Shown in pieces: positions 51,717 to 62,683 of a stretch of 64,000 bases of DNA (position 1 is its first letter; every line of letters begins with the position of its first letter). Both the position numbers and the translations under genes were made by a program. The stretch spans positions 28,475 to 92,474 of the forward strand of contig CALKBX010000026.1 in assembly GCA_937775205.1 (NCBI GenBank), written 5' to 3'. This DNA comes from an uncultured Verrucomicrobiae bacterium (lineage in GTDB: Bacteria; Verrucomicrobiota; Verrucomicrobiia; Limisphaerales; UBA1100). The notes beneath the pieces were generated by a model. It had not been told where the DNA came from. It was given only the letters and a program-made list of their open reading frames with translations, and made no database searches.

Positions 51717-51792
51717 TGCGGGTTGGTTCAATTGTGAGAATCGGCAACATCTCTGTCTTGCCTGTTTAAAAATTTGATGTTTCACTTTGCAG

Positions 51793-53863
51793 ATGCGACG
51801 CGTTTTGATTTTTCTGTTTGCGGTGGCTTGCTGCTCGGCATCGATTGCGGTTGATAAACCCAACATCATTCTTATCATGGCCGATGATATGGGTTGGGAA
51901 TGCGTGAGTGCTTATCGTGATCTGATCGCCAAGTACAACTATCCCAAGGCCAAGCCGGGCGAGAAGGATCATTACTCGACGCCCAATATCGACAAGCTGG
52001 CCGCTGGCGGCATGCGCTTTGATCATGGCTACTCCCAGCCCATCTGCACGCCTTCGCGCGTGCAGATCATGACCGGCATTTATAACCAGAGAAACTATAT
52101 CAAGTTTGGTTTGCTTGATCCCAAGGCGCGTACCTTCGGGCACGTGATGAAGTCGGCTGGCTATAAAACCTGCATTGTTGGCAAGTGGCAGTTACTGGGC
52201 GGCATGGAGGGGCCCAATAAATTTGGCTTTGATGAATACTGCCTGTGGCAACTCACCCGCCGACCCAATCGTTATCCCAGCCCGGGTATGGAGGTGAATG
52301 GTAAGGAGATTGATTACCCGGGAAAATACGGACCGGATATTGCCAGTGATTACCTGTGCGGTTTTATCGAACGCAACAAGGACCGGCCTTTCTTCGGTTA
52401 CTACCCGATGATTCTGCCTCACTGGCCTTTTGAACCGACGCCTGATAGCAAGGATTGGGATCCCAAACCCGAGGGTGCAGGCAAAGGCCAGAAGAACACC
52501 AAGTATTTCCGGGAGATGGTGGCGTACGTGGACAAGATCGTCGGCAAGATTGTGGCCAAGGTGGAGGAAGAGGGGCTCACCGAAAAAACGCTCATTATTT
52601 TTACGGGCGACAACGGCACAGCCGCTAGTGTGACGCGGTGTGATGAATGGGCGAGTGATCCAGGGCGGCAAGGGCAGCATGCCTGATGCCGGCAACCATG
52701 TCCCTTTCATTGCCCGTTGGCCGGGCACCATCAAGGCGGGCCAAACCACGCGGGCCATCGCCAATTTTAGCGATATTCTCCCGACCATTGCCGAGGTGGG
52801 TGGCGCGAAGGTAAAGCACAAGATTGATGGGGTGAGCTTTCTTGGGCATCTCAAGGGAGGCAAACCGTCGCGGGAAGTGAGCTATAGCTGGTATGCGCGC
52901 AATGGCGGCCCGCAAGGCAAGGAGTTTGCCCGCACAGCGGACTGGAAACTGTATTCTGATGGCAAATTATTTAACGTGTATGAGGACGTGCTGGAAAAGA
53001 ATCCTGTGAGCCCCGGTGAACTGGATACCAAGACCCGAACCATTCGTGCCAAGTTGCAAAAGGAACTGGACCGGATGAAAGGCACCCGCACGCAGTTTGA
53101 CTTATCCAAGTACAAACAGACCACCGCGAATCAAACCAAGGCCATAACATCGCCTGAAGCGGTCGTGTGCGAGGGCAAGTACGCCGGGCATTTGCAGGGA
53201 GTGTGCCGTGGCAGCAATGGGAATTTTTTCTGGAGCTTCACGCGGGCACTGGTCAAGACCGATCCCAAGGGCAAAGTCATGAAGAAAATTGTAGTGCCAA
53301 ATCATCACGGGGATATTTGTTTTGCTGCGGGAAAAATCTATTGCGCGGTGAATTTTGGCGCCTTCAATGATCCCAAGGGCAATTCAGACAACTGGGTGTA
53401 TGTGTATAGCTCCAAGGATTTATCGCTCCTCTCCAAGCACGAGGTGCAGCAGGTCAAGCACGGCGCCGGTGGCATTGCCGTCAAGAACGGTCGATTTCTT
53501 GTGGTGGGCGGGCTGCCCGAGGGTGTGCCGGAGAATTATGTGTACGAGTATGACAGTCAGTTCAACTTCAAGAAACGCCATGTGATCCAGAGCGGCTGGA
53601 CGCGACTGGGCATCCAGAATGCGGCCTTTGCCCAAGGCCACTGGTGGTTTGGGTGCTATGGCAGTGTGCTGCTTAAAACCACGCCAGACTTCCAGGTCGT
53701 GGGTAAATACAATTTCAATTGTGGGTACGGGGTTCTGCGCGGGCCCAATAACAAGAGCCTCTACTGTGCGGACGGCACAACCGGTAAAGAGGGTTCAGAT
53801 GGCAAAATCAAAGCTGTGCAAGTGAGTATGTTCGAAAAGCTGATCATTAAGGATAATGAATAA
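51793..53863 (+). pseudogene. Sulfatase fused to a roughly 250-aa C-terminal beta-rich domain, interrupted by a frameshift at about 52634-52640
   Basis: Signal peptide, then NIILIMADDMGWE and CTPSRVQIMTG (the formylglycine motif). ORF 51787..52686 ends FTGDNGTAASVTRCDEW...*. ORF 52640..53863, in frame +1, continues the sulfatase consensus as (G)VMNGRVIQGGKGSMPDAGNHVPFIARWPG. Confidence 0.75.
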
Positions 53864-53897: not shown

Positions 53898-55301
53898 ATG
53901 AACCTTAGAATATTCTTATCATTACTATTCGCAGCCGCAATCTTTACTGCCCAGGCTGAATCGAAACGTCCCAATATCATTCTCGCCATGGCTGATGATC
54001 AGGGTTGGGGTGACATGGGTTACATGGACCACAAGGTTCTCAAGACCCCCGTCTTTGATGAGATGGCCAAAAACGGTCTGCGCTTTGATCGTTTCTATGC
54101 AGCCGCACCCGTTTGTTCGCCCACCCGCGCCAGTGTCCTCACCGGCCGGCACCCCAACCGCATGGGCTGTTTCCAATGGGGTCACACGATGCGTAAACAC
54201 GAGATCACCATTGCTGAGGCCCTGAAAACTGCCGGTTACACCACCAGCCATTTTGGCAAATGGCATCTGGGTTCAGTGCGTGCCGATAGTGAAGTGGCTC
54301 CGGGCAAAAACGGCTTTGATGAATGGGCCTCCGCCCCCAACTTTTACGAGAATAGCCCCCTCTTCAGTCATAATGGTAAAGTGATTGAAACCAAGGGCGA
54401 AAGTTCAGCTGTCACCGTGGACTTGGCCCTTAAATGGATGGCCAAGGTAAAGGATAAGCCCTTTCTTTCAGTCATTTGGTTTGGTAACCCCCACGGCCCG
54501 CATATTGGCACCGAGAAATTCCTGAAAATGTATGAAGGCGAGACCAAGGCGTACGCCAATTTCTATGCCGAGATCACCGGCATGGACGCCGCTATGGGCC
54601 AGTTACGTGAAGGGATTCGCAAGCTGGGCGTAGCAGATAATACCATCCTCTGGTACTGCAGCGATAATGGCGGTTTAAAACCCAATTCCATGGCCGGGTT
54701 GTCAGGAAAGAAAGGTAAGTTATTAGAAGGAGGCATTCGCGTGCCCGGCATCATTGAATGGCCAGATGTCATCAAGAAACATCGTATCACAAACGTGCCC
54801 GCCAATACCGTAGATATTTACCCGACAGTTCTGGAACTGGCTGGCATAAAACATTCGAACAACCAACCGCTTCTAGATGGGGTAAGCTTGGCTGATCTAA
54901 TCCATGGTAATAGTTTCACCCGCCAGAAGCCCATGGGCTTTTGGAATTACCCAACCAGTGGCCGTGGAATGCATGCCCACAAAATGCTCGAAGCCTTGCG
55001 TGCTGAGCAATTAGCTGGCAATCAGGCACCCGCACCCAAGGCAGGGTTTGTGGATAAGAAATATCCGCTGGATAAATTCCCTGGTCCCTCAGCTTGGATT
55101 TCCGGCGACTGGAAGCTCCATCGCGTGGCTAATAAAGCAGGAGGTAACCCAAGTTACCGACTGTACAACTTAAAGAAGGATGTGCAGGAAAAGACAGATC
55201 TGGCCGCCGTACAGCCCGAACGTTTGGCCCGACTTAAAGGTGAACTGGCCGGCTGGCAAAAGAGTGTGGTTAATAGCCTCAATGGTAGGGACTACAAATA
55301 G
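53898..55301 (+). CDS. Arylsulfatase (formylglycine-dependent)
   Basis: PNIILAMADDQGWGD, CSPTRASVLTGR, GKWHLG, CSDNGG, GKKGKLLEGGIRVPGII. Confidence 0.9.
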   Translation: MNLRIFLSLLFAAAIFTAQAESKRPNIILAMADDQGWGDMGYMDHKVLKTPVFDEMAKNGLRFDRFYAAAPVCSPTRASVLTGRHPNRMGCFQWGHTMRKHEITIAEALKTAGYTTSHFGKWHLGSVRADSEVAPGKNGFDEWASAPNFYENSPLFSHNGKVIETKGESSAVTVDLALKWMAKVKDKPFLSVIWFGNPHGPHIGTEKFLKMYEGETKAYANFYAEITGMDAAMGQLREGIRKLGVADNTILWYCSDNGGLKPNSMAGLSGKKGKLLEGGIRVPGIIEWPDVIKKHRITNVPANTVDIYPTVLELAGIKHSNNQPLLDGVSLADLIHGNSFTRQKPMGFWNYPTSGRGMHAHKMLEALRAEQLAGNQAPAPKAGFVDKKYPLDKFPGPSAWISGDWKLHRVANKAGGNPSYRLYNLKKDVQEKTDLAAVQPERLARLKGELAGWQKSVVNSLNGRDYK

Positions 55302-55307
55302 TCTCGA

Positions 55308-57197
55308 TTATTTTTCATCGCGCAACACACGCACATCGCCTTGCCGTCGGGTAATACCGTCGCGATCCATTTTTTCCAGGAGCGGAATCAGAATGCGCCG
55401 AGTAGTGCCGAGAGCCTGGCGCAACTCGCTGGCGGTGCCTTGAGTGTGAGTGCGCAGGTGGTTTTTTAGCAGCATGCGGAAGCGGTTGAACTGAGCTGCG
55501 CCTATTGCCAATTCGGGGCTGACCTCCACCACTTCCCCCGCTTCGATGAGAAACCGTAACGCTTGCGCACCCTCAGAAGTGCCGGCCAAAAGTTTGCGCG
55601 CGGGTGGATCAGTACCGGCGAGTGCTTGTCGAATGTGTTCGCCCGCTGCTCGCAAGTTGGGTGGCAGTGCGGGCTTGTGCGAAAGGGATGTGATGTATTT
55701 AGCCTGTCGCTTGAATCCATTTTGGCAAAGGTCTTTCAGTAACTCGGCAAACACATCACCGGATGGAAAAGCCTTCTGCGCCAGCGGTCGCAGCAATTCT
55801 ATTGTCAGCCCAGGTCGTTCGGGATGGGCGCGGTGTTCCGCGTTTACCGCGTTGGCTATCGCCTCGCGCGCCTGTTGCCAACGCGACTCATCGGCCAGCC
55901 AATCGCCTGCCGCCAACGCGGCCTTGGCGTTTACGAGCGAGGTCACGGCGCTGTCAATTTGGGCTGTTGAAAAAGTCGAGGGACACAACAACGCGTCCCG
56001 CTGCGCAATACCATCGCGCACAAGTTGTGAGCGAATCCATGTTTCGGCGTTCTCCGGCGCTTCGGCGCGGGTTTGCAGGAAAAGTTTGTGTGCGGCCGAT
56101 CTCAAGCCTTGTCGATCGCCCTGTGCATCGAGCACGCGGCCACCGGCGAGCGTGGCGCTTTCGGGCCAGTTGCGAATGACGATGCGGTCGCCGGGCCAAA
56201 CGCACGCGGGGTTCTCAAGGCGCAGTTGGGCCAGTTGCGCCGCGCCGGGCTCAAGGGTTTTGCCCTCCACCAAAACCAAGCGCGCGGGCCAATGGCCGCT
56301 GCCGTGGTGCACGCGCACGCGGGTATCGTTGCGCAGCGGGGCGCATTCCTGGCCGAGGCGTGTGGAGCGTTCAAGCAACACATCCAGCGTACGCGTGGTG
56401 GTGGCGAGTACGGGCAGGGTGATGGTCGCGCCGCGTGGCAAATCGCCGCGCGCGGCATCGGCAAGATTTAGGGCGGTGCGTGTGCCGGGTTGCGCGGTGT
56501 CCTGCGCGCGGTTGTGCGATTGCAGCGTGCGGATGCGCGTGTCGCGCCCGGGCGGATATGCGGTGACCGTGTCGCCTTTGCTCATCGTGCCGCCGGTGAG
56601 TGTGCCGGTGACCACAGTGCCGATGCCTTGCAACGTGAACACGCGATCAACGGCAAGGCGCGGTTGGCCGTCATCAGTGTGCGGCGGCATGGTTTCGGCT
56701 GCGGCTGCGAGTGCGTTTTTTAATTCTTCCAAGCCTATGCCGTTATGGGCGGACACCGGAACGATGGAGGCCTCAGCCAATGGACTGTTTTGGAGTTGCT
56801 GGCGGATTTCCTCTTCGCGCGCGCGGGTGTCATCCACGAGATCGGCTTTGGTGAGGGCCACCACGCCGCGCGTTGCGCCGAGGTAGCTGAGGATTTGCAA
56901 ATGCTCTTCGGTCTGCGGCATCCAGCCATCGTCCGCCGCCACCACGAGTAGTGCGAGATCCACCGCGCCCACGCCGGCCACCATATTTTTTACAAAATCC
57001 TGATGGCCCGGAACATCCACGATGCCAAGGCTGTGCCCGGGGAGTTCAAGATGCGCAAAGCCAAGATCGATGGTGATGCCGCGCAGTTTCTCCTCTGGCA
57101 GGCGGTCCGGGTCATTGCCGGTAAGCGCTTTCACCAGCGCGCTCTTGCCGTGGTCAATGTGACCGGCAGTGGCGAGGATGGCGTGGCGGGGGGTCAT
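55308..57197 (-). CDS. selB: Selenocysteine-specific translation elongation factor SelB
   Basis: [34 protein letters not shown] GTPase motifs. A long C-terminal winged-helix region ends [29 protein letters not shown], as expected for the SECIS-binding domain. Confidence 0.9.
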
Positions 57198-58135
57198 CGA
57201 TTTGAGGGCAATCGCTCGAATTTAAACGTGGCTTTCACTGGCACCTCGTTTCCGTTCACCTCGAGATGCGGGCCGAAGAAATAATTGAACGGGCCGGACT
57301 TGGGCGCAGGGGTCACGCTTATGTCGCGCCCTCGGCTGAGTTCGAGGCGGTTGGCGGGGTGATGGCCAAAATAGTATCCGGCCAGTTCGGGATGTTTGTC
57401 GGCTTCGCTAATGTCCACGGGCATCCATTTGCCATCGGTGAAAAATTCCGCCCAACAATGGTAGCCACCAATCGCGCCCGCATCGCGGTTCGCCGGAATG
57501 GTGAAGCCAATGGCAAAGCGCGCGGGAATATTCGCCGCGCGACATAAGGCAATGAAGTATGCGTGGAAATCGGTGCAGTTGCCGGTGTGCGCGTCGCAGG
57601 CGTAGAGGGCATCGCCGCGGCCCCAACCCTTGCCGGTTTTGTCGTAGCGCATATGTGCGAGTACGTGGTCGTAGAGCGCCTTGCCGCGCGCGTGGTCGTC
57701 CGCTGCTTTCGCGGTGATTCGCTTGGCAATGGCGGTGAAACGCGGGTTGAGCGGCACGAGTTTTTCGGCCTTGAGATGCAGAGCCGGATTGCCGGCTTCG
57801 GCGTGAGCTACTTTTTCTTTGCGCGTGACTTGGTAGTGAATGGTGATGCGCTTGCCGCTGTCGGCGGGTGCGGGCTGCAGTACGAGAATTTCATTTTCGC
57901 CGGAGGCATCGCGCGTCTTGTGCCACGGCACGGGCGAGATGATGGCGCGTTTTTGAATTTTTTGGAAAGTGTCAGTGCCTGCGAGCGGAATCCAAAGCGT
58001 GCCTTTGGCGGTGATCTTGGGCAGCGTCATCTCGTAAACCAATTCGAAATGGTCCGTACCGCGCACGATTGTTTTGTCCGCCGCGAAAGTGGAGGCAGCC
58101 AGAAAAAGTGCGATAAGAGACAGCAATGTTTTCAT
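57194..58135 (-). CDS. Secreted transglutaminase-like (Cys-His-Asp) protein
   Basis: Signal peptide MKTLLSLIALFLAASTFA. Catalytic-core pattern TGNCTDFHAYFIALCRAANIPAR, GYHCWAEF, VDISEAD. Both ends overlap their neighbours by 4 nt (selA stop, selB start). Confidence 0.85.
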   Translation of the reverse strand: MKTLLSLIALFLAASTFAADKTIVRGTDHFELVYEMTLPKITAKGTLWIPLAGTDTFQKIQKRAIISPVPWHKTRDASGENEILVLQPAPADSGKRITIHYQVTRKEKVAHAEAGNPALHLKAEKLVPLNPRFTAIAKRITAKAADDHARGKALYDHVLAHMRYDKTGKGWGRGDALYACDAHTGNCTDFHAYFIALCRAANIPARFAIGFTIPANRDAGAIGGYHCWAEFFTDGKWMPVDISEADKHPELAGYYFGHHPANRLELSRGRDISVTPAPKSGPFNYFFGPHLEVNGNEVPVKATFKFERLPSNR

Positions 58136-59469
58136 TGAAGTGTTTCGTGGATGGATTGGAGCAGTTGTTTTTCTTGCTCGGGAAAAATGGTTCGCAAATC
58201 GAGCCGAAAGCGTTGGTTGCTGATGACGCCGATAACTGGCGTGGACGCGCGGCGCAATCGCGTGGCGAAATCCTTGAGGCTAAAATTTTCCGGCACGAGG
58301 TCGAGAGTGAAGCTCGGGAGAGTCGCTTGAGGCAACGCGCCACCACCCACTTGTGATTCGCCTTCGGCCACGGCGACGGTTATCGGCAACACGGCCAATG
58401 CTTTGGCCAGTTTGGTGGCGCGGCGTTTGAGTTGTTTGGAGTCGGCTCGGAGGCTTTGGTTTAGTGGAAGCGTTTCGCCATCGCCGCGCAGATAAATTTC
58501 GGCGGCGTGCTGCAGCGCGCTGAGGATGAGTTTGTCGCAGCGCAGCGCGCGGAAGAAGGGATGTTTTTTCAGTGCGGCGATGTATTTGGCTTTGCCGGCG
58601 ATGATTCCCGATTGCGGGCCGCCGAGCAGTTTGTCACCGCTGAAGCATACGAGGGCTGCGCCGCTCTTGATGACCTCGCGCGGGGTGGTTTCGTGATGGT
58701 CGGCGGCCCAGTTTTCGGTGTCGGTCAACACACCGCTGCCGAGGTCTTCGACGAACGGGATGCGTTTTTTTCGGGCGAGCGCGGACAGTTCGCGCCGGTC
58801 TGGCGCGGCAACAAAGCCGTCCATGAAAAAATTGCTGCGATGGACTTTGAGCAGCAGTCCGGTGTTTTTGCCGATGACCTTGGCGTAGTCGTCGAGCGTG
58901 GTGCGATTGGTGGTGCCGACTTCGCGTAGGATGGCATCGCTGGTTTCGAGTACATCCGGGATGCGAAAGCCGCCGCCGATTTGCACGAGTTCACCGCGCG
59001 ATATGATGACTTCTTTTTTCTCGGCGGTGAGATGCCGCAGGATGAGCACGAGTGCGGCAGCGCAATTATTCGTCACCATCGCCGCTTCCGCGCCGCAGAG
59101 TTCGGCGAGGCATTGCTCGACGTACGCGGCGCGTTTGCCACGGCGGCCGGTGGCGAGGTCGATTTCGAGATTGGTGTAGCCGGCGTTGTTCGGCGGCGCG
59201 ATGGGCGCACGGCCGAGGTTGGTGTGGACGACCACGCCGGTGCCGTTGATAACTGGTTGCAGCCGCGACAACGCGAGATCTTCTCAAACGCAGACGCAGG
59301 CCGGAAACAATTTCGTCGTGTTCGGGAATGGTTTTGATTTGCGGAGCGACGCCAACTCCGCGCGAATGGTCGCCACCACGAGTGGGCGGGGCAGGGGGCA
59401 GTCGGCCACCGCTTCGAGCAGCGTGTCCACACCGGGGATGGCGCGCAGTTTATTCTTCGCTCTGGCCAT
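58132..59469 (-). pseudogene. selA: L-seryl-tRNA(Sec) selenium transferase SelA, interrupted by an in-frame TGA at 59281-59283, most likely caused by two compensating 1-nt indels
   Basis: N-terminal ORF 59284..59469 (LRAIPGVDTLLEAV...) and ORF 58132..59271 (LQPVINGTGVVVHTNLGRAP..., FSGDKLLGGPQSGII) are in the same frame, separated by TGA. The 18 codons before the TGA read oddly (KSKPFPNTTKLFPACVCV). The -1 frame gives a plausible QIKTIPEHDEIVSGLRLRL. Confidence 0.8.
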
Positions 59470-60508
59470 TAGTTCACGGTGATGAGTGTTTCGGTGCTCT
59501 CGGTGAGTTGGCCGAAGGATTCAAGTTTCAAATCGGCAGTGGCTTCGTGAAATGCTTCGAGGCCATCGGCGGCCACGGCGACGAGCAGGCCGCCGCTGGT
59601 TTGGGGGTCGCAGAGGAGGGCGCGTTGGGCGTCGGTGAGCGGGCTGATGTGGTGACTGTAGCTGTCGAAATTGCGGTCGGTGCCGCCGGGGGCGCAGTCC
59701 TCGGCGATGTAATGGTCGGTGTTCGGCAGGCGCGGCACGGCGGCGCTGTTGATGATGGCGCTCACGCCGCTGCCTTCGCACAGCTCGGTGAGGTGTCCGA
59801 GCAAACCGAAGCCGGTCACATCGGTCATCGCCTTCACGCCGGGCAACGCGCTGAGGTGGCTGCCGATTTGGTTGAGCGTGGTCATTTGGTCGATGGCGCG
59901 TTGGACGTCGGCGTCGTCGGCGAGGCCACGTTTTTGGGCGGTGGTCACGAGGCCGACGCCGAGGGGTTTGGTGAGAAATAGTTTGCAGCCCACTTCCGCA
60001 GCCGTCGTTGCGTTTCAAATTGCTTCACGGCGACTTGGCCGGTCACCGCCAAACCAAAAATCGGTTCGGGCGCGTCGATACTGTGGCCGCCCGCCAGCGG
60101 GATGCCGGCGCGTTCGCACGCGGCGCGGCTGCCTTCGAGCACGCGCCCGGCCACGGCGGGCGGCAGTTTTTCAATCGGCCAACCGAGCACCGCAATGGCC
60201 ATCAACGGCGTGCCGCCCATCGCGTAGATATCGCTGATGGCGTTGACGGAAGCGATTTGGCCGAAGTCGAACGGGTCGTCCACGATGGGCATAAAAAAAT
60301 CCGTGGTGCTGATGACAGCTTGGCCATTGCCGAGATCGAACACGGCGGCGTCGTCCTTGGAGTCGTTGCCCACGAGCAACCGCGCACTCGGCGCGGACTT
60401 GCCGGCGACGCTGAGAATTTCGTCCAAAACTTTGGGCGATATTTTGCAGCCGCAACCGGCGCCGTGGCTGTATTGGGTGAGGCGAATGGGATCGGTGGGG
60501 TCAGTCAT
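59469..60508 (-). pseudogene. selD: Selenide, water dikinase SelD (Cys form), split by a frameshift near 60000-60006
   Basis: ORF 59945..60508 is the N-terminal half: [16 protein letters not shown], with both Cys encoded by TGC. It ends ...[21 protein letters not shown]...*. The adjacent frame reads [31 protein letters not shown] and carries on into ORF 59469..59993, matching the SelD consensus. Confidence 0.8.
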
Positions 60509-60523
60509 GGCAGAAATATAAAA

Positions 60524-60619
60524 TGGCGGAGAGGGTAGGAATCGAACCTACCTCGGCCCGTTCACGAACCGACAACGGTTTTGAAGACCGCGGGGACCAC
60601 CAGGCACCCTTCACTCTCC
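60524..60619 (-). tRNA. selC: tRNA-Sec (anticodon UCA) with a long variable arm and encoded CCA
   Basis: The minus-strand sequence is GGAGAGTGAAGGGTGCCTGGTGGTCCCCGCGGTCTTCAAAACCGTTGTCGGTTCGTGAACGGGCCGAGGTAGGTTCGATTCCTACCCTCTCCGCCA. Anticodon arm: GCGGT-CUUCAAA-ACCGU. Extra arm: 8 bp, TCGGTTCG-TGAA-CGGGCCGA. T arm: GTAGG-TTCGATT-CCTAC. Two weak points remain: the D-arm pairing, and acceptor position 7, which does not fit cleanly by eye. Confidence 0.8.
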
Positions 60620-60669
60620 GGGAAAAATTTTGAGCGCAATTGGAAACGGCTTGCTCCACGCGCTGCCGT

Positions 60670-60897
60670 CTACAGTCGCTGAATGGACTGCAGCACGGCG
60701 TTGGGCTCCGGGAAGGTTCCCGTTTCCCGCTTGGAATACACCAGTTTATCATCGGCTGTGACCTCGAACACTCCGCCGGAACCGGGTACCAGTTCCAATG
60801 ACGAAATGCGTTGCTTCAGCTTCAAAAGTTGGTCCGCCAAACTGACGGCCTGCGGCTCGTAATTTCAAGCCGCGCAATATTCAATGCGCACCTTCAT
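60670..60897 (-). CDS. SelW/Rdx-family selenoprotein, 75 codons, with in-frame UGA (Sec) at 60865-60867 in a CxxU motif
   Basis: With TGA=U, the minus strand from ATG 60897 reads MKVRIEYCAAUNYEPQAVSLADQLLKLKQRISSLELVPGSGGVFEVTADDKLVYSKRETGTFPEPNAVLQSIQRL*. Three features fit the Rdx fold: the N-terminal (I/V)xYCxxU, the G-G-x-FEV strand, and the SK...G.FP C-terminal motif. The ORF track lacks this gene because of the TGA. Confidence 0.8.
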
Positions 60898-60982
60898 GGT
60901 TCGCCAAAACATACGCCCACTCCGCCGATTTGGCCAGCCCAATGTGCTTGCTTCGTTTCCGCCATTTCGGCAAAATCACCGC

Positions 60983-62683
60983 GTGAATCGCATTCTTCTT
61001 TTTATCGTGGGCTTTTGCCTGATTGCACAAACTGTTTCCGCAGCCAAAGCGCCGCGGCCAAATATAATTATCGCGATGGCCGATGATATGGGCTGGAGCG
61101 ATATTGGTTGTTACGGCAGCGAAATTAAAACGCCCAACCTCGATGCGCTCGCCAGTGGTGGCGTGCGGTTTACTCAGTTTTACAACACCGGCCGCTGCTG
61201 CCCCACGCGGGCTACGCTGCTTACGGGGGTGTACGCGCATCAGGCGGGCATTGGTCATATGATGAACAATCGTAACTTGCCGGGTTACAAAGGCGACCTC
61301 GGCCAAAACGTGCGGACGATTGCCGAGGTGATGAAGACGGCCGGTTATGCCACTTATATGTCAGGCAAATGGCACGTGACACCGCACACCAGCCCGAACG
61401 GGCCGAAATATAATTGGCCACGACAGCGGGGGTTCGACCGATTCTATGGAACCATCCACGGCGCGGGCAGTTTCTTTGATCCCAACTCGCTTACGCGCGA
61501 GAACACGCAAATCTCACCGCTCACGGATGCGGGCTACAAAACGGATGAGTTTTATTACACCGACGCCATCAGCGACCACGCCGCGCGTTACATTCGTGAG
61601 CACAAAAGCGACCAGCCATTTTTTATTTACGTGGCCTACACCGCGCCGCATTGGCCGATGCACGCGCTGGAAAAAGACATCGCAAAATACAAGGGCAAGT
61701 ACAACGCCGGTTGGGACGCAATGCGCCACGCGCGGTATGCGCGGCAGTTGAAGATGGGGCTCATCGACTCGAAATGGAAAATGTCCGATCGCGATCGTCG
61801 CGCGCCGGAGTGGAAGGCCGCCCCCAATCGCGAATGGGAGATTGGCCTGATGGAAACGTACGCCGCGATGGTGGATAATCTCGACCAAGGAATGGGCCGC
61901 GTGGTGACTGCCTTGAAGGAAACCGGCCAGTACGAAAACACATTGATTTTATTTCTCGCCGACAACGGCGGCTGCGCCGAAGGAATGGGCCGTGGCAAAG
62001 GTATTCAGTTTAAGGATAAGGATCCAAAAGTGCTCAAGCCAATGGGCCGCGGCGAATTGCAGACAAGTATGATCCCCAAGCGCACTCGTGATGGTCGCGT
62101 CGTCAAGCAAGGCACCGGCGTGATGACCGGCGGCCCGGATACGTACCACGGCTATGGCCTCGCGTGGGCGAATGCGAGCAACACGCCCTTCCGCGAGTAC
62201 AAACATTACGTGCACGAAGGCGGCATCAGCTCGCCGCTTATCGTCCATTGGCCGAAGGGGATTTCCAATAGCCGCCACGGCAAACTTGAAAATCAGCCGG
62301 GGCACTTGATCGATTTGATGGCCACCTGCGTGGATATCGGCGGCGCAAAATATCCTGCAACAGTGGGCGACAAAAAAATTGTCCCAATGCAAGGCACCTC
62401 ACTCGCGCCCGCCTTCAACGGAAAAAACATTGCCCGTACCGCGCCGATTTTCTGGGAACACGAAGGCAACCGCGCTATGCGCGACGGCCAATGGAAGCTC
62501 GTGGCCAAAGGCGCGCGCGGCCCGTGGGAGTTGTACGACATCGCGGCGGATCGCACAGAATTGCATAACCTCGCCGCCAAGCAACCCAACCGTTTGCAGG
62601 CAATGGCCAGTGCGTGGGAAGCATGGGCGGTGAAAGCGCTTGCCAAGCCGTGGCCTTATGGAAAAAAGAAGCCAAAAAAATAA
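60983..62683 (+). CDS. Arylsulfatase (formylglycine-dependent)
   Basis: GTG 60983 gives the signal peptide VNRILLFIVGFCLIAQTVSA. PNIIIAMADDMGWSD, CCPTRATLLTG, GKWH, LADNGG, VHEGGISSPLIVHWP. The longer ORF start at 60884 would overlap the selenoprotein gene. Confidence 0.9.
   Translation: MNRILLFIVGFCLIAQTVSAAKAPRPNIIIAMADDMGWSDIGCYGSEIKTPNLDALASGGVRFTQFYNTGRCCPTRATLLTGVYAHQAGIGHMMNNRNLPGYKGDLGQNVRTIAEVMKTAGYATYMSGKWHVTPHTSPNGPKYNWPRQRGFDRFYGTIHGAGSFFDPNSLTRENTQISPLTDAGYKTDEFYYTDAISDHAARYIREHKSDQPFFIYVAYTAPHWPMHALEKDIAKYKGKYNAGWDAMRHARYARQLKMGLIDSKWKMSDRDRRAPEWKAAPNREWEIGLMETYAAMVDNLDQGMGRVVTALKETGQYENTLILFLADNGGCAEGMGRGKGIQFKDKDPKVLKPMGRGELQTSMIPKRTRDGRVVKQGTGVMTGGPDTYHGYGLAWANASNTPFREYKHYVHEGGISSPLIVHWPKGISNSRHGKLENQPGHLIDLMATCVDIGGAKYPATVGDKKIVPMQGTSLAPAFNGKNIARTAPIFWEHEGNRAMRDGQWKLVAKGARGPWELYDIAADRTELHNLAAKQPNRLQAMASAWEAWAVKALAKPWPYGKKKPKK

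Follow-up and report, generated by a model that had tools for sequence, protein, structure and literature searches.

A predicted SelW-like (Rdx-family) selenoprotein gene with an in-frame UGA codon upstream of tRNA-Sec in an uncultured Verrucomicrobiae bacterium

The SelW-like gene and its genomic neighbourhood

The window, which is the whole stretch of 64,000 nucleotides of DNA analysed here, comes from an uncultured Verrucomicrobiae bacterium and has a G+C content of 56.5%. Positions 60670 to 60897 of its minus strand carry a coding sequence of 75 codons, which starts with ATG at 60897-60895 and ends with TAG at 60672-60670 and is assigned by translation and profile matches to the SelW-like (Rdx-family) selenoproteins. 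The translation of 60897 to 60670 begins with MKVRIEYCAA, is interrupted at codon 11 by TGA (60865-60867), resumes with NYEPQ and ends with SIQRL. This TGA is the sole in-frame stop before the TAG, and 64 open codons lie between TGA 60867-60865 and the TAG. Codon 11 is predicted to specify selenocysteine (Sec), the U11 of a C8-A-A-U11 (CxxU) redox motif. Cys8, encoded at 60874-60876 of the minus strand, is the proposed resolving partner in this motif. The ORF list at this locus contains only a 56-codon remnant (60670-60840) and overlapping spurious frames. The original prediction had described a gene missed by the ORF track, a minus-strand protein of 75 residues read from ATG 60897 with the TGA as Sec, and a frame that stays open for 64 codons past it, and the translation and the ORF list agree with all of this. 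The window-specific changes in the gene are synonymous only (N=0, S=1). A scan of 60400-61150 for promoter-like and terminator-like sites on the strand of the gene found none, and the gene has no obvious Shine-Dalgarno sequence.

The genes of the Sec machinery follow on the same strand. A tRNA-Sec gene with the anticodon UCA (60524-60619, minus strand), identified by ARAGORN and by Rfam family RF01852 (67.4 bits, E=6e-13), lies 50 nt after the stop codon of the SelW-like gene. Next is selD (59469-60508, minus strand), which encodes a selenophosphate synthetase of the Cys type (GCGCK); it is split into two ORFs (59945-60508 and 59469-59993) and is matched in two frames by tblastn of SelD from the related locus L003. 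The selA gene for selenocysteine synthase (58132-59469, minus strand) is interrupted by an in-frame TGA at 59284-59286. A transglutaminase-core protein of 313 aa with a signal-like N-terminus is encoded at 57194-58135 of the minus strand (PF01841, E=1.5e-25), and its Cys-His-Asp motifs are present; this gene shares 4 nt with the end of selA and 4 nt with the beginning of selB. The selB gene (55308-57197, minus strand) is intact and encodes a Sec-specific elongation factor of 629 aa; the ORF gives a single-frame, full-length tblastn match to L003 SelB, and its orthologs contain Pfam SelB domains. The 64-kb window thus contains an intact tRNA-Sec and an intact selB together with selD and selA genes that are present but broken in frame. 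The SelW-like gene had been placed about 50 nt upstream of tRNA-Sec and selD-selA-selB on the same strand. Distance, strand and genes are as described, but a transglutaminase-like gene separates selA from selB, and selD and selA are frame-broken here.

On the other side of the SelW-like gene, a divergent sulfatase ORF occupies 60884-62683 of the plus strand (Pfam Sulfatase, E=9e-63, from ORF residue 59), and a signal-peptide-like stretch, MNRILLFIVGFCLIAQTVSA, can be read in its sequence. The sulfatase probably starts at GTG 60983, in which case it and the SelW-like gene would share about 85 nt of intergenic DNA. Several sulfatase genes (53898-55301, 60884-62683 and 51787-53863, plus strand) border the Sec cluster, and the same is seen in syntenic loci. 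Such flanking genes suit a polysaccharide-degrading lifestyle of marine Verrucomicrobiota. The sulfatase at 51787-53863 is itself split into two overlapping plus-strand ORFs in different frames, 51787-52686 and 52640-53863; the former matches the N-terminal portion of a single sulfatase (profile positions 1-245) and the latter its C-terminal portion (252-300 plus SGSH_C). Here, too, the window contains either a frameshifted gene or a sequence error.

The gene order is conserved in marine Verrucomicrobiota contigs and metagenome-assembled genomes (MAGs), which carry the divergent sulfatase, the SelW-like gene, tRNA-Sec, Cys-type selD, selA, the transglutaminase-core protein gene and selB. In every Verrucomicrobial locus examined, tRNA-Sec stands in this relative position, and the transglutaminase-like gene lies between selA and selB, as in L003, L004 and L007-L010. 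The closest sequences are L098 and L097, with 95.5% and 94.2% DNA identity, and for the named MAGs ('Verrucomicrobiae bacterium CBN3_323.7' and others) the figure is about 90%. A sister clade known from metagenomes (L123, L126, L131 and L137; about 70% SelA identity) has tRNA-Sec-selD-selA with no SelW-like gene in about 1.1 kb upstream, and therefore the linkage is specific to a clade. In Bacillaceae (Fictibacillus, Bacillus, Salinibacillus and Cytobacillus; loci L048, L051, L053-L055, L057-L061, L063, L068, L072, L073, L077, L085, L090 and L094), a TGA-bearing SelW-like gene is found among sel genes, either with selD divergent upstream and selA downstream or with selB upstream. The linkage in Bacillaceae and that in Verrucomicrobiota appear to be independent. 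Most of the other phyla have no sel gene within 3 kb of the SelW-like gene.

The breaks in selD and selA are small. Two 1-nt insertions, near 60025 and 60000, split selD, and their removal gives a clean reading of 345 aa. In selA, 1 nt is missing from an A-run near 59332 and 1 nt is added 48 nt further on, near 59284; the two changes put 16 codons out of frame and create the in-frame TGA at 59284-59286, and correction of both gives a clean reading of 445 aa. Alignments against eight relatives, including ones that are 94-95.5% identical, show the four indels in the window alone. They are confined to 741 nt of selD and selA, and none occurs in about 5.7 kb of neighbouring coding sequence; no other coding-sequence indel is found across the 8.6 kb that can be compared with relatives. 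Among the metagenome relatives recovered by a SelA-anchored search (up to 95.5% DNA identity), none has the indels and none is from the same strain. Pattern scanning of metagenomes for the selD indel region gave no match, whether the extra bases were included or not.

If the indels are real, no Sec-tRNA would be made from these copies of selD and selA. The locus may then be a relic, in which the Sec pathway has just been inactivated by the frameshifts, UGA-11 acts as a stop, and what is left (the SelW-like gene, tRNA-Sec and selB) is decaying. Such a history would concern the current function of the gene and not its identity. The confinement of the indels to this window, their clustering in selD and selA and the additional split sulfatase fit it, and bacteria commonly lose the Sec trait (PMC1794560). 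However, four corrected bases restore clean reading of both genes, and the window-specific changes across selD and selA together are all synonymous (N=0, S=10). Moreover, the SelW-like gene, tRNA-Sec (67 bits) and selB are intact. Four indels that are not accompanied by a relaxed substitution pattern are what is expected of a local assembly or sequencing error. This pattern favours a local error of sequence or assembly, or otherwise an event that is very recent. We regard a recently silenced pathway as a possible but distinctly less probable reading than a working one.

Family membership and predicted fold

The product of the SelW-like gene was scored against protein profiles with U replaced by C. 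It matches the Pfam family Rdx (PF10262) over residues 2-73 of 75, with 78.3 bits against a gathering cutoff (GA) of 22.6 and E=5e-22. It also scores 65.3 bits against NCBIfam TIGR02174 (CXXU_selWTH; cutoff 34.2) and 90.4 bits against the equivalog NF041051 (SelTWH_Campy, 'SelT/SelW/SelH family (seleno)protein'; cutoff 88). Because the margin above the last cutoff is small, NF041051 is taken as support at the subfamily level only. A sequence search of the PDB retrieves the CxxC relatives 3DEX (E=2e-14), 2FA8, 2OKA, 2OBK, 2OJL and 2P0G as well as mouse SelW (2NPB). The second Cys of the CxxC motif in the solved bacterial homologs aligns with the TGA codon, that is, with U11.

For the AlphaFold2 model, the input was the database ortholog P0001 (97% identical, with W in place of Sec) together with its alignment. 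The model has a pLDDT of 83.8 and the order b1-a1-b2-b3-b4-a2 (strands 2-8, 33-39, 43-48 and 51-57; helices 14-26 and 65-74). Its best fold matches in the PDB are crystal structures related to SelW, with TM scores of 0.79-0.86, followed by thioredoxins. Because b1 spans residues 2-8 and a1 residues 14-26, Cys8 ends b1 and residue 11 stands directly before helix a1 in the model. The CxxU motif is thus predicted to lie between b1 and a1 of a thioredoxin-like b-a-b-b-b-a fold, in accordance with its earlier placement at the end of the first beta-strand. The search against PF10262 that had been proposed for the gene therefore returns a clear Rdx/SelW-like match (E=5e-22), with which TIGR02174, NF041051, the PDB relatives and the predicted fold concur. 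An Rdx score of 78 bits against a cutoff of 22.6, together with the recurrence in orthologs of a TGA with conserved flanks, means that the match is not due to chance.

Conservation of the UGA codon and a covarying hairpin

A protein search for orthologs retrieves mostly 56-residue gene calls that begin after the TGA, along with two calls from JGI in which W stands at the position of the TGA. The DNA behind these entries is uniform. All 16 contigs behind shortened or mistranslated protein matches have TGA at this codon and an identical MKVRIEYCAA before it, at a DNA identity to the window of just 77-85%. Upstream of the ATG, the sequences of the ortholog contigs diverge and contain stops. A scan of one genome per GTDB species found 80 loci, 79 of which have the motif; the codon is TGA in 78 of these 79 and TGT in the remaining one (L050). 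These loci are distributed over Verrucomicrobiota, Bacillota (Fictibacillus, Bacillus and Salinibacillus), Actinomycetota, Chloroflexota, Armatimonadota, Planctomycetota, Marinimicrobia, Myxococcota and Desulfobacterota. The SelA-anchored metagenome scan, which is free of SelW-like bias because it is anchored on SelA, adds 24 further loci by motif and three more by eye in which a SelW-like gene with TGA lies upstream of tRNA-Sec. The codon is TGA in 95 of 96 motif-bearing loci, and in total more than 110 related loci, from about ten phyla, have TGA at the aligned position, against a single one with TGT. M1, I5, E6, Y7 and C8 before the TGA are invariant across phyla in alignment A1 and the loci. 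The protein is conserved on both sides of the TGA among orthologs, and Cys takes the position in L050 and in the solved homologs. A comparison of homologs for Cys or Sec at this position and for conservation beyond it thus bears out the proposed recoding: the TGA is kept with one replacement by TGT, and both flanks are conserved.

A hairpin lies shortly after this codon. Its core, CCGUCA-GUU-UGGCGG, occupies 60834-60848 of the minus strand with the apical loop GUU at 60840-60842, and it is defined by minimum-free-energy (MFE) folding and by covariation as a candidate bacterial SECIS element. In the MFE fold, the hairpin is GGCCGUCA-GUU-UGGCGGACC at 60850-60831, in which the stem is extended to 60831-60850 with a bulged A in the window sequence. 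Alignment A2 contains 73 distinct sequences, ungapped, from the TGA to +45. The six pairs formed by its columns 20-25 with 29-34 (C20-G34 corresponds to 60848-60834) are paired in 94.7% of cells, and 25 cells are altered on both sides of the stem at four of the six pairs. For example, a C-G pair is replaced by G-C in Bacillaceae by way of a synonymous Leu change from TTG to CTC. None of 500 shuffles gives a stem as good, and slid registers of A2 pair in 23-50%. The G-U of the loop is kept in A2, where column 26 holds the G, 23 nt downstream of the UGA. The stem starts 16 nt past the UGA, and the spacing range of bSECISearch is 16-37 nt. The single Cys-form homolog (n=1) has no such hairpin. 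Because the stem covers the conserved codons A-V-S-L-A-D, the conservation of the hairpin is partly a matter of the protein. Folding of the window sequence by itself is uninformative: the 71-nt fold does not differ from shuffles (z=+0.51), and when synonymous codons are resampled, 159 of 2000 trials reach a hairpin at least as good (p about 0.08). The SECIS assignment therefore rests on comparative data. Bacterial SECIS elements have a small apical loop that contains a guanosine (PMC1088965), and the hairpin found here lies soon after the UGA and has a conserved G in a small apical loop at +23 nt. No Rfam family matches the hairpin, and the sole real match in 59000-62000 is tRNA-Sec.

The original prediction had proposed a hairpin 12 nt after the UGA, at about 60834-60855, with a GU in the apical loop. 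Its coordinates overlap the conserved hairpin and the GU loop is correct, but its pairing register is wrong. The register proposed, CCGC-A-GG with UU-G-GCGG (columns 13-19 with 28-34 of A2), is paired in 68.5% of cells, shows no compensatory change and is no better than shuffles. A SECIS-like hairpin with a GU loop and compensatory covariation is nevertheless present within 40 nt of the UGA, where a stable hairpin had been anticipated.

If the UGA were an ordinary stop, the real gene would be the 56-codon ORF that runs from TTG 60840 to 60670. The public ortholog calls agree with this in that most are 56 aa long and begin at L/M-ADQLLKLK. However, a 56-aa product would have neither b1 nor the CxxU motif, although the Rdx profile covers the protein from residue 2. 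The ten codons before the TGA are conserved across phyla, whereas the region upstream of the ATG is not and contains stops, and the putative internal start falls inside the covarying hairpin. An ordinary stop is thus highly improbable. Even less credible is a genome-wide reassignment of UGA to Trp or Gly (genetic code 4 or 25), which is suggested by the W at the aligned position in P0001 and P0005 as deposited but is rejected on stop-codon usage, since 13 of the window's 34 long ORFs, selA and the transglutaminase-like gene among them, end in TGA, and which also conflicts with the contigs of P0001 and P0005, whose DNA has TGA there and does not yield the deposited proteins under table 11, and with the dedicated tRNA-Sec and selB that adjoin the gene. 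The same stop-codon usage implies that the standard code applies and that recoding at codon 11 is site-specific.

Proposed decoding and relation to known systems

The minus-strand sequence from 60897 to 60670 is very likely a SelW-like (Rdx-family) selenoprotein gene decoded by the bacterial Sec pathway, to judge from the sequence comparisons. Family membership, the conserved TGA with both of its flanks, the covarying hairpin and synteny with the Sec machinery have been shown. Sec insertion, SelB binding, co-transcription and redox chemistry are proposed from the established knowledge of the pathway and the family. In this proposal, SelD would supply selenophosphate, and SelA would turn Ser-tRNA(Sec) into Sec-tRNA(Sec). 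When the ribosome arrives at UGA codon 11, the hairpin within the coding sequence (60834-60848), with its loop G 23 nt downstream of the UGA, would serve as the bacterial SECIS. SelB.GTP.Sec-tRNA(Sec) would bind the hairpin and bring Sec at UGA-11 instead of termination, allowing the 64 further codons to be translated. The SelW-like gene probably forms one transcription unit with tRNA-Sec, selD, selA and selB. The 75-residue thioredoxin-like protein would most likely act as a thiol/selenol oxidoreductase, with a Cys8-Sec11 selenenylsulfide as the intermediate of its cycle.

The SelW-like gene is linked to sel genes both in marine Verrucomicrobiota and, in an unrelated phylum, in Bacillaceae such as Fictibacillus. 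On this basis, it might be more than a client of the Sec machinery, namely a working part of a self-contained, transferable selenium cassette made up of the SelW-like gene, tRNA-Sec, selD, selA, the transglutaminase-like gene and selB. This idea is speculative, and we think it improbable. If it were true, the SelW-like protein would handle reduced selenium, deliver it to SelD or protect it, and the secreted transglutaminase-like protein would count as one more accessory, so far unrecognised. More modestly, the position of the gene at the head of the cluster and the similar linkage in Bacillaceae provide a lead to the function of bacterial SelW-like proteins.

The gene and its product correspond to the prokaryotic SelW-like family described by Zhang, Fomenko and Gladyshev in 2005 (PMC1088965), with which they share a length of about 75 aa, an N-terminal CxxU motif, a UGA-encoded Sec and a bSECIS element with a G in the apical loop. 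In the Sargasso Sea data, SelW-like proteins, which have the CXXU motif, outnumbered every other selenoprotein family (PMC1088965); the family is abundant in marine metagenomes, and its function is presumed to be redox. It is also listed as a CXXU family in the table of prokaryotic selenoproteins of a 2026 review (PMC13188914). Nothing essential differs in the window copy except that it is the first cistron ahead of tRNA-Sec-selD-selA-(transglutaminase-like)-selB, an arrangement that was not found described in the literature consulted here. Because the family, the CxxU motif and the decoding mechanism are long established, the finding is a correct rediscovery. The first-cistron position in the Sec cluster, the embedded transglutaminase-like gene and the broken selD and selA of the window copy are mildly new.

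The bacterial CxxC proteins of the Rdx family (3DEX SAV_2001, 2FA8 Atu0228, 2OKA, 2OBK, 2OJL and 2P0G) have the same fold (TM 0.79-0.86), are 26-42% identical to the window protein and carry the redox motif in the same place. They differ in that Cys replaces Sec, in their length of about 100-108 aa as deposited and in genes that have neither UGA nor SECIS. Mouse SelW (2NPB) also belongs to the Rdx family and has a CxxU motif between b1 and a1 of a thioredoxin-like fold, but it is a distant relative of the window protein (E=9e-4, TM 0.55). In contrast to the hairpin within the coding sequence of the window gene, Sec insertion in eukaryotes, as in mammalian SelW, uses a SECIS in the 3'-UTR, SBP2 and eEFSec. 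The closer parallel is the bSECIS of E. coli fdhF, which is likewise a stem-loop immediately 3' of the UGA in the ORF, with a GU in the apical loop, and both elements are presumed to be bound by SelB. The loop G of fdhF is at about +23 counted from the U of the UGA. By the same count, the loop G of the window element is at +26; its stem can be drawn as 6 bp closing a 3-nt GUU loop or as 5 bp closing a 5-nt loop, its conserved core has no bulged U, and its binding by SelB is putative.

The SelW genes of Epsilonproteobacteria have been reported to be completely missed by genome annotation (PMC4607533). The ortholog records of the window gene (P0001 and P0005 from JGI, P0002-P0012 and NCBI 'hypothetical protein DEB48_04285') are either cut-down calls of 56 aa that begin past the UGA or full-length entries with Trp in place of Sec, and their DNA has TGA throughout. 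A corrected annotation adds one selenoprotein to the inventory of marine Verrucomicrobiota, and alignment A2, with its 73 distinct sequences and covarying hairpin, could serve for annotating the SelW-like subfamily.
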